Positions 6,001-8,229 of a stretch of 42,038 nt of DNA are shown here, piece by piece; positions within the stretch are counted from its first letter, which is position 1, and every line of letters begins with the position of its first letter. Source of the DNA: Candidatus Aenigmatarchaeota archaeon (GTDB taxonomy: Archaea > Aenigmatarchaeota > Aenigmatarchaeia > CG10238-14 > SCSR01). A program made the position numbers. The stretch is from the NCBI GenBank assembly GCA_039091335.1, contig JAWCME010000001.1, forward strand, positions 76,024 to 118,061, written 5' to 3'.

Positions 6001-8229
6001 TGCTATCACACTTTCTATACTTCTTCCTCTAACAAGTCCTTTATTAACAGCTTCTTCATAATACCTTGCAATTCTCTCATGTATAGTTCTTGGTAAATTC
6101 AAGAAAGAAACTATTCTTTGAAGTTCTGAAAGAGCAAAACTTAGGTTTCTATCTCTAGACTTTATTAATCTTTTATGCCATTTAGTTAGCCTATAATACT
6201 GTGCCCTTTTCTTTGTAGGAACTTTATATAATTCTCCTAACCCCTTCCCTATTTCTGTTGTAAGTCCTTTATCGTGTTTAGTAAAAGTTAATGGTGCGCC
6301 TCCTCTTGCCCTTCTAGACATTTGCTCTGAATCAAATGCACGCCACTCCTGTCCTGTGTCAATTATCTCTTCCTTCAAAACTCCACCGCAATCTCTACAA
6401 AACAGCTCTCCTCTTACAACATCCTCAACTAAATTAAAACTTCCACAATCTGGACATCTCAATGTCTTTTTTTTCATTTCACCACTTTAAGGTAATTATT
6501 TAATTTTCCTAATAAATGATACGCCGTTAAATATTTAAATCTTTCTATTTTGCTATTTATCAACTTTTCGTATACTCAGATTTTAAAAAAATATTGGGTG
6601 TTGGCTTAACTATATCAATAGAACTTCTTGGAAATCTTATTAGTTTTTCTCCACATATTGGACATTCTTTTTCTTTTTCAAAATATTTTTTACAATTTTT
6701 GCAATAATTTCCCCAAGTTATTAATTTTTTTATTTTTTCACTAAATATTGAAACATAACCAATACCAATTTTTTCAGCAACATTTTGAATATTCCTATCA
6801 TCTGAAATTATTGTACAATTTTTTTCCTTTGCTAGTGCCAAAACCTCTATATCTGTAGAAGAAAGTTTTTTCAGGTCGCTAGTTTCTATAGCAATTTTTT
6901 TTATTTCCTCTATAATTTCCTTTTTTGGTTCAACTACCTTAATCTCTAGTGCACTCAACTTCATCTTTGTCATTCTATCTTTTACTTCCTCTATCACAGA
7001 GTTTACTGTGAACATTTCTTCAAAGTTCCTAAAATCTGTCAAATAAATCAAAGAGGAAGTATCAAGAACCACTCTCATGATTTTTATATTTAAAAATAAA
7101 ATATATATGAAAGATTGAAATGGTTAAATCTTTCCCGATATCCTCAATAGAAAAAGTTGCAAAAAGGGCTGGGTGTGAAAGAATTTCATTTTCAGCGCTA
7201 GAAAGTTTGAGAGAAACTTTGCTTGAAATTTCAGAGAAAATTGCGATTGATGCTGTGGCTGTAGCAAAGCATGCAAAAAGGGTAACTGTTAAAAGGGAAG
7301 ATATTATATTGGCTACAAGGAAGTGATTTTTTGGAAAAAACAACTTCAAGTATAAAGGACTTAAAGCCTGGTGGGTTTGTTTTAATAGAAGATGTTCCGT
7401 GTAGAGTTGAAAAAGTAGCTATTTCAACATCGGGTAAAGATTGAAAAAAACAATCGCCCAAACACGGAGCAGCAAAAGCTAGAGTTGATGCCATAGGTCT
7501 ATTTGATAATAGAAGGAGAAGCATAGTTAAGCCTGCTGATGAAACAGTAGAGGTTCCAATAATAATTAAAAAAAATGCACAAATTTTATCAGTAATCGGA
7601 GAAAAAGTTCAACTTATGGACCTAGAAGATTTTTCTGTTTTTGAGTTAGACATTCCAGAAGAAATGAAAGGAAGTTTGCAGGCTGGAAATGAAATACAAT
7701 ACTTTGAAGTAGTAGGAATTAAAACCATTAAACAAATTAAATAATTTAAATTTCTCTTCTACTTACTTTTTACCAGGAAAAAAAGAATAAATGCTGTTTC
7801 TTTGCTATAAAAAAATTCAAGAACTACCATAGGATGGTTGTTTATCAAGGTCAGGCAACCTCAGGCTTTTAGTGGCAGCCAGCTGAGTACCTCGCTCGAA
7901 AGCTTGGTACTTACACTGCTGCTCTATCAAGCTTGTAGTCTACAAGGGCCTTTGTCGCTCTTCCGCTCCTTTCGGAGCAGTTGAGCGATTGGCTGTCTAT
8001 TTTTCCGGATGGCTTCGTCCTTAGTTAGACAAGTATAGCACTTAGTTTAAGTGCTATACTTTATGCCTTCCTGCTAATGGAGTTTAAACTCCATTAGTTT
8101 CAGGACTTATCCATGATGGCGTGGCTGCCCGGCTGCAATCACAGCCGGTACACTAGAGGCCACGGATGGGTGTTCCTTTCGTACTCACCCATCCTTCCGG
8201 TCAGACAGCCAGCACCTCGAGTAGATAGC

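Follow-up and report, generated by a model that had tools for sequence, protein, structure and literature searches.

A 24-nt insert with bulge-helix-bulge geometry in the hypusine lysine codon of an unannotated aIF5A gene from a DPANN archaeon

The genome studied here (G000) belongs to Ca. Aenigmatarchaeota, a DPANN lineage, and the window is the whole stretch of DNA that was analysed, 42,038 nt in length (G000:C1:76024-118061). All positions are window coordinates, and the features are listed in Table 1. Between a histone gene and the 23S rRNA gene, the genome-wide survey's note had placed an unannotated gene for the translation factor aIF5A, and Pfam profiles, solved structures and the neighbouring genes agree with it. 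The gene (7331-7744, + strand) is broken by a 24-nt insert (C1:83461-83484, i.e., 7438-7461). Its first open reading frame of 37 amino acids matches the IF5A-like_N profile (E 6e-6). The aIF5A frame resumes at 7463, in the same frame as the first piece, and the C-terminal piece matches the eIF-5a OB fold (E 9.8e-5, 22.9 bits); scores for this domain range from 21.7 to 22.9 bits, slightly below the cut-off of 24.2 bits. The read-through translation matches IF5A-like_N above the cut-off (E 4.7e-9), and full-length aIF5A matches in the PDB include the structure 1iz6 (E 1.3e-28, residues 2-136). Both domains of the protein, an N-terminal SH3-like domain and a C-terminal OB fold, are present. The match is the single one for aIF5A in the genome; a search of the whole genome with PF01287 missed it at E <= 1, whereas the protein-level Pfam scan did find the OB fold. 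The histone gene and aIF5A are probably co-transcribed.

Table 1. Features of the aIF5A locus and elements of the predicted intron (window coordinates)
Feature	Position	Strand	Evidence and remarks
Archaeal histone gene	7120..7326	+	Pfam CBFD_NFYB_HMF, E 2.9e-9; ends 4 nt before the aIF5A start
aIF5A exon 1 (predicted): TTG start, 35 codons and the initial AA of the hypusine Lys codon	7331..7437	+	ORF list, translation, Pfam IF5A-like_N
Distal outer helix (predicted), 5' strand UUUC	7422..7425	+	Minimum-energy fold only; pairs with 7466-7469; bulge not adjacent
Central 4-bp helix, 5' strand GGGU, in exon 1	7432..7435	+	Pairs with 7456-7459
5' three-base bulge AAA	7436..7438	+	Fold; predicted cut after 7437
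24-nt BHB-type intron (predicted)	7438..7461	+	Missing from 31/31 intron-free relatives and from solved aIF5A structures; fold; shuffle test
Inner stem, 5' arm GAUUG	7439..7443	+	5-bp stem; predicted fold, pairing in three genomes
In-frame TGA within the predicted intron	7442..7444	+	ORF list, translation; unspliced mRNA would give a 37-aa peptide only
Inner stem, 3' arm CAAUC	7451..7455	+	Predicted fold; loop at 7444-7450
Central 4-bp helix, 3' strand GCCC, in intron	7456..7459	+	Relatives GCCU, GCUC, pairing kept via G-U
3' three-base bulge AAA	7460..7462	+	Geometry; predicted cut after 7461
aIF5A exon 2 (predicted): third base of Lys codon, HGAAK..., OB fold, stop at 7742-7744	7462..7744	+	Translation, Pfam, PDB
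Distal outer helix (predicted), 3' strand GGAG	7466..7469	+	Minimum-energy fold
23S rRNA	7849-11076	-	Neighbour of aIF5A
Deoxyhypusine synthase (DHS) gene	20103..21029	-	PF01916, E 1.1e-91, no stops; ORF of 308 aa

In the hypusine motif GKHG, the insert separates the first two bases of the Lys codon from the third. Solved aIF5A proteins show a gap of 8 residues exactly at this site, between G and KHG, which, together with the sequence itself, corroborates the earlier claim that the codon of the modified lysine is split; the list of open reading frames and the translation likewise agree with the 24-nt length and the in-frame TGA given in that claim. The hypusine lysine must lie in an intact GKHG loop for modification, and in G000 the motif is unbroken only once the insert is removed. 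DHS, the enzyme that modifies the split lysine, is present, as had been noted, and is encoded in the same window. Cutting at the predicted bulges yields a collinear aIF5A with a restored GKHG motif, as previously proposed; its length, given as 127 amino acids, is however 129 amino acids when counted from the TTG. The earlier reservation that this start codon was only inferred can be softened, as the TTG aligns with the ATG of the aIF5A gene in a relative (G046).

Because the 24 nt are a multiple of three, the TGA could in principle be read through or recoded, giving eight extra residues in the hypusine loop. We consider this extremely improbable, as TGA is an ordinary stop in G000, where it ends 111 of the 370 open frames of at least 200 codons as well as the adjoining histone gene, and as the homologous inserts of 28 and 29 nt in two relatives are not readable in frame. 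An assembly error, which we include in the same estimate, is contradicted by the recovery of the insert in an independent contig. It is found unchanged in an identical contig of 151 nt from a sequencing run of a second study, and the version of one relative (G018) recurs on another metagenome contig, from which it follows that the insert is not an assembly artefact.

The minimum-energy fold of the region consists of the central helix GGGU/GCCC, an AAA bulge and the inner stem GAUUG/CAAUC (z = -2.1 to -2.2), so that refolding reproduces the bulge-helix-bulge (BHB) geometry described earlier. Two 3-nt bulges on opposite strands with a 4-bp helix between them are found in G000 as well as in G046 and G018, the two relatives with an insert. 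In the minimum-energy fold of G000, the 3' bulge belongs to a run of six unpaired nucleotides (7460-7465). Composition-preserving shuffles keep the motif in 1, 149 and 109 of 200000 cases for the inserts of G000, G046 and G018, respectively. The z-scores of the whole-region folds are unremarkable in the relatives (G046 -0.06, G018 -0.87). According to a study on BHB introns, cleavage takes place between the second and third bulge residues (PMC2738675). Owing to the runs of A, the predicted intron boundaries could be shifted by one or two bases and the product would stay the same. The genome-wide survey's note had seen no clear outer helix. Outer helices of 4-5 bp are in fact predicted in all three insert-bearing genes, but they lie 2-6 nt from the core and a small internal loop separates them from the 3' bulge, which is the part of the statement that stands. 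As the 3' site consequently falls in an internal loop, the motif is a relaxed, HBh'-like one and not a strict hBHBh'. A group I or group II intron was rejected, as these need a ribozyme core of hundreds of nucleotides and the insert has 24; Rfam matches within the window are limited to rRNA and tRNA.

The distribution over relatives reproduces the counts reported before: an aIF5A match is found in 55 of the 69 other genomes of the family, 50 of which are unbroken and shorter by 24 nt, and the remaining 14 genomes still gave no aIF5A match at E <= 10. In the intron-free relatives, GKHG is contiguous in 31 of 31. Two relatives carry inserts at the identical site, 28 nt in G046 and 29 nt in G018, with other inner stems, and both shift the frame, exactly as had been claimed. 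A full-length collinear aIF5A is obtained from them only if they are cut at the bulges (129 aa in G046; 132 aa in G018, counted from an upstream GTG). The three inserts thus come from three genera of the family and occupy the same base. In G046, the central helix is GGGU/GCCU with bulges AAA and AAG, and in G018 it is GGGU/GCUC with bulges AAA and AAA. Over the three genes, 27 of 27 pair cells are paired (12/12 in the central helix, 15/15 in the inner stem), against 18-54% when the partners are slid. Among the three genomes, three of the five inner-stem pairs are changed on both sides, and two pairs of the central helix are changed from G-C to G-U; unguided RNAalifold recovers the same 9 pairs. 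The covariation score was reached by 10 of 500 shuffles in a comparison of only three, related sequences. The G-GGT upstream of the Lys codon, present in 3 of 3 intron-bearing genes versus 0 of 31 intron-free ones, would count as an adaptation of the exon to the intron. The intron-bearing aIF5A genes are not monophyletic (p-AU 3.9e-6), and the introns of G000 and G046 are similar at their ends, though the synonymous sites of their genes differ at about 73%.

The three inserts also bear on translational bypassing, in which a peptidyl-tRNA-Lys would leave the AAA at 7436-7438 and land 24 nt further on, at the AAA of 7460-7462. In bypassing of the T4 gene 60 type, take-off and landing codons are matched and a stop directly follows the take-off codon. 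The codons do match in all three genes (AAA/AAA, AAA/AAG and AAA/AAA), with landing sites 28 or 29 nt downstream in the relatives; the gap holds a hairpin, and a stop occurs within 2-5 codons of take-off, although as the second to fifth codon and not the next. Moreover, BHB splicing would place no constraint on base 3 of the 5' bulge or on bases 1 and 2 of the 3' bulge, and still all three genes have A at these positions. Bypassing, on the other hand, does not call for pairing between exon GGGU and the four bases immediately before the landing codon, and this helix is kept in 3 of 3 via changes from G-C to G-U and sets the exact geometry of 4 bp and 3 nt. In a comparable insert in the SMC gene of G000, the bulges are AAG and AAA and the helix geometry matches that of aIF5A. 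The enzymes for BHB splicing are encoded across the family, and translational bypassing is not known to occur in archaea. We therefore judge bypassing to be highly improbable.

Regarding these enzymes, RtcB is present in G000 (PF01139, E 4.6e-85, on contig C25), where the match extends over profile positions 1-209 before the contig breaks off. The splicing endonuclease EndA was not found in the G000 bin, which is 87% complete, with PF01974, TIGR00324 or tblastn with six EndA proteins of the family. This is in line with what the earlier reading had conceded, yet EndA is encoded in 66 of the 69 other family genomes and in 20 of the 20 high-quality ones, including G046 and G018. A glycosyltransferase-like neighbour about 170 nt from the end of contig C5 offered a synteny lead for EndA, but the C5 tail shows no start of an EndA gene, leaving this lead unsupported. 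The EndA of the family is a single protein of about 190 aa (188 and 191 aa in G046 and G018), with a 6-residue insert rich in Lys/Arg ahead of the catalytic His. It is most like the homotetramer of M. jannaschii, a type of enzyme described as strict for the canonical BHB, which counts against the intron reading. According to one report, DPANN alpha4 enzymes with an extra loop accompany more disrupted tRNA genes (PMC5829648). Intron-bearing tRNAs are abundant in G000, as 19 of 28 ARAGORN calls contain an intron and Rfam tRNA matches are 99-125 nt long; no insertion was seen in the 16S alignment over the first 728 model positions. Six hot-spring metagenome runs hold the stretch, none of which is clearly RNA, and the one possible RNA run covers 7142-7292 only.

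The in-frame stop and the lack of an EndA gene in the bin would both fit a pseudogene or decaying gene, in which the insert is a disabling hairpin and no mechanism removes it. We regard this as very unlikely in view of the state of the gene. No other stop or frameshift occurs across the 129 codons. Between the exons and those of the nearest intron-free sisters, pN is 0.10-0.17 versus a pS of 0.73-0.92, and compared with the closest of these sisters pN is about 0.12 with synonymous sites saturated; these values indicate that the exons are under strong purifying selection. Furthermore, the only aIF5A match in the genome is at stake, and aIF5A is regarded as universal in archaea. An intact DHS, whose known substrate is this lysine, is kept as well, and three genera keep inserts at exactly one base with their pairing preserved.

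Another conceivable outcome of the stop at the end of the first reading frame is that two separate polypeptides, the N-terminal one of 37 aa and a restarted C-terminal one, assemble without RNA splicing. Small DPANN genomes often contain split genes, which speaks for such an arrangement in general. In this gene, however, it is the very lysine of the hypusine loop at which the frame is broken, the first in-frame ATG past the insert is codon 96 of the read-through with no earlier in-frame start, and the inserts of the relatives are equally structured, which makes two polypeptides scarcely credible.

Given this evidence, it is very likely that the aIF5A gene of G000 is interrupted by a 24-nt BHB mRNA intron that is removed by splicing, of the same kind as that of crenarchaeal cbf5. 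In the transcript, a 4-bp helix would form between GGGU of exon 1 and GCCC, the latter lying at the intron's 3' end. This helix would be flanked on each side by three bulged A's, placed on opposite strands, with the 5-bp stem-loop closing the intron. The tRNA-splicing endonuclease EndA would cut after the second base of each bulge and RtcB would ligate the exons, by which the AAA Lys codon of GKHG would be recreated (junction GGU-AAA-CAC), and DHS could then turn this lysine into (deoxy)hypusine. As translation of unspliced mRNA would end two codons into the intron and give only the 37-aa fragment, functional aIF5A would depend on RNA splicing, and as judged from the genome the cell most likely must splice this mRNA to make the protein.

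The search for the intron was also extended beyond the family. A GTDB-wide pattern scan gave four loci, namely G046, G018 and two intron-free false hits, and a scan of metagenomes gave another four, of which three were false hits and one was identical to G018. Since GGGTAA was a fixed part of the pattern, the scans would pass over variants with a different central helix. At the level of the order, where 96 of 118 genomes matched, no further aIF5A gene broken at the site was found, nor at the level of the class (322 of 371 genomes matching) among the matches listed; both searches could flag only inserts that shift the frame or contain a stop. Ten class genomes with two or weak matches were rechecked and all proved to be contig ends or paralogues.

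The predicted intron can be compared with several known systems. The BHB introns of tRNAs and rRNAs, cut by EndA and joined by RtcB, likewise have a 4-bp helix and two 3-nt bulges on opposite strands. In pre-tRNA, too, exon bases (the anticodon) form the 5' strand of the central helix, and the same enzymes are presumed for aIF5A. In contrast to these introns, the aIF5A substrate is an mRNA that ribosomes can enter, lacks a tRNA body and has an outer helix not adjacent to the 3' bulge. In eukaryotes, the HAC1 and XBP1 mRNAs are cut by IRE1 and joined by RtcB-type ligation in a stress-regulated way. They share with aIF5A a small non-spliceosomal mRNA intron set by RNA stem-loops, a ligase of the RtcB family and an unspliced product that is truncated or non-functional, and they differ in their nuclease, IRE1, and in their regulation by stress. 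A close archaeal counterpart is the BHB intron in the pre-mRNA of cbf5, encoding a pseudouridine synthase, in Desulfurococcales and Sulfolobales (Watanabe 2002; Yokobori 2009, PMC2738675). In these studies, the cbf5 intron resembles that of aIF5A in three respects: the predicted cuts fall between the second and third bulge bases, the codon of a key functional residue is interrupted (the catalytic Asp in cbf5, the hypusine Lys in aIF5A), and its patchy distribution implies gain and loss. Unlike cbf5, aIF5A is a translation factor and occurs in another archaeal lineage. By the same accounts, cbf5 splicing is linked to a heterotetrameric endonuclease and is confirmed by cDNA, whereas the endonuclease of the aIF5A family is a single alpha4-like subunit and the aIF5A intron is predicted from DNA sequence. 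A further example is the HVO_1309 mRNA of Haloferax volcanii, which is cut by the splicing endonuclease (summarised in PMC10485636). As in the presumed case of aIF5A, an mRNA is there processed at a BHB by EndA, in another gene and another lineage. According to this 2023 review, two archaeal genes are known to undergo such splicing, cbf5 and HVO_1309, and further cases are to be expected (PMC10485636).

In the searchable literature, archaeal protein-coding transcripts spliced by the tRNA endonuclease are indeed known for very few genes, and full-text searches returned no paper linking aIF5A or Aenigmarchaeota to a BHB mRNA intron. If confirmed, the present case would add a universal translation factor and a DPANN lineage, with an essential modified lysine that exists only after RNA splicing. 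Gene callers would then miss essential genes in such genomes, by which inferences on completeness and metabolism would be deflated. It would also provide a compact substrate for studying the action of an alpha4-like endonuclease on a relaxed motif and the competition between splicing and coupled translation.

The G000 genome was also scanned for BHB motifs. A loose scan was uninformative (42947 motifs, 2374 past the ORF filter). A strict scan showed no enrichment: it gave 456 motifs, 13 of which passed, and a control on the reversed sequence gave 471 and 9. The translations of 6 of the 13 strict candidates were inspected, and Pfam was applied to 3 besides aIF5A. Pfam profile continuity was lacking in the candidates C1:29210-29234 and C16:3642-3690 and was displayed by the SMC candidate alone.

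The latter (C23:5200-5224) is a 25-nt insert of the same design that splits the Walker-A Lys codon of the SMC gene of G000; its two flanks match positions 2-36 and 38-136 of the SMC_N profile. It provides a precedent within this genome for the intron proposed in aIF5A. Both inserts may be members of a family of mini BHB introns of 24-29 nt that have settled specifically at GGU-AA|R (Gly-Lys) junctions of critical motifs in the protein-coding genes of these DPANN archaea, the hypusine loop and the Walker-A P-loop being the two cases. Such introns could spread by reverse splicing or recombination, and could persist in an intein-like manner because imprecise loss is lethal. This idea is tentative, and on balance we think it rather unlikely. 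It is prompted by the design common to two genes of G000, the similar intron ends of G000 and G046, the non-monophyly of the intron-bearing genes and the presence of inteins at the adjacent SMC codon in relatives. If it held, synthesis of a core translation factor would be wired to tRNA-splicing capacity, and the two inserts, if confirmed, would suggest that mRNA BHB introns may be commoner and more site-specific than thought. Like the P-loop inteins of essential ATPases, the mini-introns would be located where an essential gene is most conserved; inteins differ in being removed at the protein level and in encoding their own homing enzyme, whereas the mini-introns encode nothing. In SMC of the same family, a LAGLIDADG intein is located one codon from the site of the 25-nt insert of G000.

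The genome under study (G000; 569,737 bases on 29 contigs, 87% complete) contains a single match to the translation factor aIF5A, and the sequencing runs in which this stretch is found are hot-spring metagenomes. As claimed in the genome-wide survey's note, the gene lies between a histone gene and the 23S rRNA gene; it starts four bases past the former and is read as two pieces in the same frame (see table). The first piece matches Pfam IF5A-like_N (E 6e-6) and the second the eIF-5a OB fold (E 9.8e-5; 22.9 bits, slightly below the 24.2-bit cut-off). In a PDB search, the read-through sequence aligns over its full length with solved archaeal aIF5A (1iz6, E 1.3e-28), the sole gap being eight residues that are absent from the solved proteins and that lie between G and KHG of the hypusine loop. 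The lysine of this G-K-H-G motif is the one that is turned into hypusine. Its codon is interrupted after the second base, and the reported 24-nt insert with its in-frame TGA is located exactly at this gap. The note's C1:83461-83484 corresponds to 7438-7461 of the window (G000:C1:76024-118061). Deoxyhypusine synthase, listed as present in the same note, is intact. On the other side of the histone gene, the window encodes a 172-aa protein (6560-7078, minus strand) that combines PIN_6 (E 6.1e-18) with a zinc ribbon at its C-terminus. It presumably resembles the rRNA 3'-end nuclease Nob1 and is situated beside the histone and aIF5A genes as well as the rRNA genes.

Features of the aIF5A locus, the splicing machinery and the SMC insert (window positions unless a contig is named)
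Feature	Position	Strand	Basis or remark
Histone-fold gene	7120-7326	+	Pfam, E 2.9e-9
aIF5A, first frame piece	TTG 7331 to TGA 7442-7444	+	frame reading
Closing helix UUUC/GGAG	7422-7425 with 7466-7469	+	minimum-energy fold
Exon bases GGGU	7432-7435	+	DNA
First (5') AAA	7436-7438	+	DNA; bulged in minimum-energy fold
GAUUG	7439-7443	+	DNA; pairs with CAAUC
Loop of seven A	7444-7450	+	DNA
CAAUC	7451-7455	+	DNA
GCCC	7456-7459	+	DNA; pairs with GGGU
Second (3') AAA	7460-7462	+	DNA
aIF5A, second frame piece	7463 to stop 7742-7744	+	translation
23S rRNA gene	7849-11076	-	Rfam
tRNA gene (these four 85-125 nt)	15425-15527	-	Rfam
tRNA gene	18785-18869	+	Rfam
tRNA gene	19241-19365	-	Rfam
tRNA gene	31445-31543	-	Rfam
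Deoxyhypusine synthase	20103-21029	-	PF01916, E 1.1e-91
RNA ligase RtcB	G000:C25:37091-37729		PF match, E 4.6e-85; runs off contig end, profile positions 1-209 of 426
SMC insert, 25 nt	G000:C23:5200-5224 (1701-1725 of extracted locus L073); outside window	-	strict BHB-plus-ORF scan

This insert is best explained, by a wide margin, as a bulge-helix-bulge (BHB) intron that is spliced out of the RNA; judged from the sequence, this reading is highly probable. The small probability that is left is shared among alternatives: the gene is a pseudogene, ribosomes hop from one of the matching AAA codons to the other, the protein is made in two pieces, or the stop codon is read through or the insert is an artefact. 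Regarding a pseudogene, the rest of the frame is free of other defects, and the gene differs from its nearest intron-free sisters at 0.10-0.17 non-synonymous against 0.73-0.92 (saturated) synonymous changes per site. As for read-through, TGA is a normal stop in this genome, terminating 111 of the 370 open frames with a minimum length of 200 codons as well as the adjacent histone gene. An assembly artefact is not the source of the insert: in a run belonging to a second study, a contig of 151 nt spans 7362-7512 with zero differences.

The minimum-energy fold pairs the two helices and bulges the first AAA (ensemble frequency 0.89, z = -2.2 in a 46-nt context), which reproduces the central helix, 3-nt bulge and inner stem described earlier. 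The 5' strand of the central 4-bp helix is contributed by the exon, as it is in pre-tRNA BHB motifs. According to a study on the crenarchaeal cbf5 pre-mRNA intron (PMC2738675), endonuclease cleavage takes place between residues two and three of a bulge. Cuts are predicted after 7437 and after 7461, which would remove 24 nt and rejoin AA+A; translation of the joined exons gives 129 aa and not the 127 aa previously proposed. The survey's remark that there is no clear outer helix holds for the position adjoining the 3' AAA, where 7460-7465 are unpaired opposite 7426-7431, but a distal helix is predicted that closes the loop. Since no helix directly adjoins the 3' AAA, the motif is a relaxed BHB, and its 3' side is the least secure part of the structure. 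When the 24 bases were permuted with the exon context fixed, 1 of 200000 shuffles retained a 4-bp helix, 3-nt bulges and an inner stem of at least 4 bp. Genome-wide, a loosely defined form of the motif occurs 42947 times in about 1.2e8 position-and-length combinations, i.e., about 3.5e-4 per specified site.

Relatives provide comparative support. A repeat search gave the family counts reported before: aIF5A was matched in 55 of the family's 69 other genomes, and in 50 of them the match is single, unbroken and 24 nt shorter than the G000 read-through. Among the remaining five, three (G041, G065, G027) are interrupted where a contig ends or bases are masked, and two (G046 and G018) are broken exactly at the site. 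Their inserts of 28 and 29 nt, respectively, shift the reading frame. Both start after GGGU-AA and close with a four-base partner of GGGU (GCCU in G046, GCUC in G018, using G-U pairs) and then AA, while the inner stem differs (8 bp and 5 + 2 bp). Excision at the bulges yields full-length collinear proteins with GKHG in both, in line with the claim that only bulge cuts restore the motif there. RNAalifold, run on an unguided MAFFT alignment of the three sequences, returned exactly the nine core pairs, with standard pairs in 27 of 27 cells; both sides changed in three of the five inner-stem pairs and G-C became G-U in two central-helix pairs, whereas shifting the partners by 1-3 columns left only 18-54% pairing. 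The observed covariation score was reached in 10 of 500 shuffles, which for three related sequences is of moderate strength only. GKHG is contiguous in all 31 intron-free genes read. Because G-GGT precedes the lysine codon in 3/3 intron-bearing but 0/31 intron-free genes, the exon appears to have adapted to the central helix.

More widely, aIF5A was matched in 96 of 118 order and 322 of 371 class genomes, with no further broken copy among the matches listed. When about 186,000 species genomes were scanned for the pattern, the only hits were G046, G018 and two false positives; a metagenome scan added one contig, which shares 862 nt with G018 without a mismatch. From the same habitat, a contig of 1360 nt (run X5, record 6) matches both flanks of the gene (7315-7344 and 7628-7663) with a few differences and has 259 letters between them compared to 283, i.e., 24 fewer, as would be expected of a co-occurring relative that lacks the intron.

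In the aIF5A gene tree (131 columns; not a species tree), every intron-bearing gene is sister to intron-free genes with strong support (G000 with G023, 96/99; G046 with G010, 95/89; G018 with G019 and G021, 99/97), and grouping the three is rejected (p-AU 3.9e-6). The G000 and G046 introns resemble each other at both ends, which suggests a shared origin. A common origin combined with this scattered distribution would require either loss on several occasions or transfer from one lineage to another, as likewise argued in the cbf5 study (PMC2738675). The aIF5A insert is the same kind of element as the cbf5 intron: both are relaxed BHB motifs with a common cut rule, both lie inside the codon of a key residue and both are patchily distributed (PMC2738675). 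A 2023 review lists cbf5 and HVO_1309 as the known archaeal genes with such splicing and expects more (PMC10485636). No BHB intron in aIF5A or in Aenigmarchaeota protein genes was found in full-text literature, mostly outside subscription journals and without supplements.

Regarding the splicing machinery, RtcB is present, and the tRNA-splicing endonuclease EndA was not found in the 87% complete bin by Pfam, NCBIfam and tblastn with six relatives' proteins, in agreement with the note. EndA occurs in 66 of the 69 other family genomes, including 20/20 high-quality ones as well as G046 and G018. The organism clearly needs it, as ARAGORN predicts introns, roughly assigned, in 19 of 28 tRNA calls across the genome. 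One window tRNA has a 50-nt anticodon-loop insertion. In another, the anticodon loop is longer by 13 nt and the variable region by 19 nt, owing either to an intron or to a long variable arm. In the family enzyme, one polypeptide of about 190 aa carries both EndA domains (locus L070, 294-860, in G046; L071, 321-896, in G018). Among PDB entries it best matches the M. jannaschii alpha4 homotetramer (1a79, E 2.1e-28), compared to which it has a six-residue Lys/Arg-rich insertion right before the catalytic His, a candidate specificity-widening loop. DPANN alpha4-type EndA with an extra loop accompanies more disrupted tRNA genes, according to PMC5829648. The rRNA genes are long as well: 16S (16652-18397, minus strand) has 1746 nt for a 1478-position model, whose first 728 positions contain no insertion, and 23S has 3228 nt for 2987 positions. 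The extra sequence possibly represents rRNA introns.

A strict genome-wide BHB-plus-ORF scan showed no enrichment (13 candidates, 9 in the reversed-sequence control). It recovered the aIF5A site and one further site that held up, in an SMC gene. Here, exon 1 ends in ...GPNGVG + AA, and exon 2 continues with A and then SNLCDAICFVLG. Pfam SMC_N covers profile positions 2-36 upstream and 38-136 downstream, and the SMC hinge (E 2e-35) comes next. The central helix here is UGGU/GCCA, the bulges read AAG and AAA, and the inner stem has 5 bp; the minimum-energy fold adds one U-A pair to the central helix at the cost of the 3' bulge (z = -2.35, 47-nt context). Both genes are interrupted between the second and third bases of a lysine codon that is preceded by GGU for glycine, the SMC residue being the Walker-A lysine. 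Two genes with one site type are an added twist that could make the case more than another cbf5-like intron. Of 29 loci from relatives, 27 have an uninterrupted Walker-A motif. G057 (locus L092, contig G057:C6) and G011 have a large insertion after the Walker-A lysine that ends in ...VHN before SN; the one in G011 (locus L105, G011:C22, about 13-1512, plus strand) matches Intein_splicing (E 4e-30) and LAGLIDADG (E 4.6e-28). Open frames of 1262-1395 aa in G019, G035, G041 and G046 may point to further large insertions in SMC.
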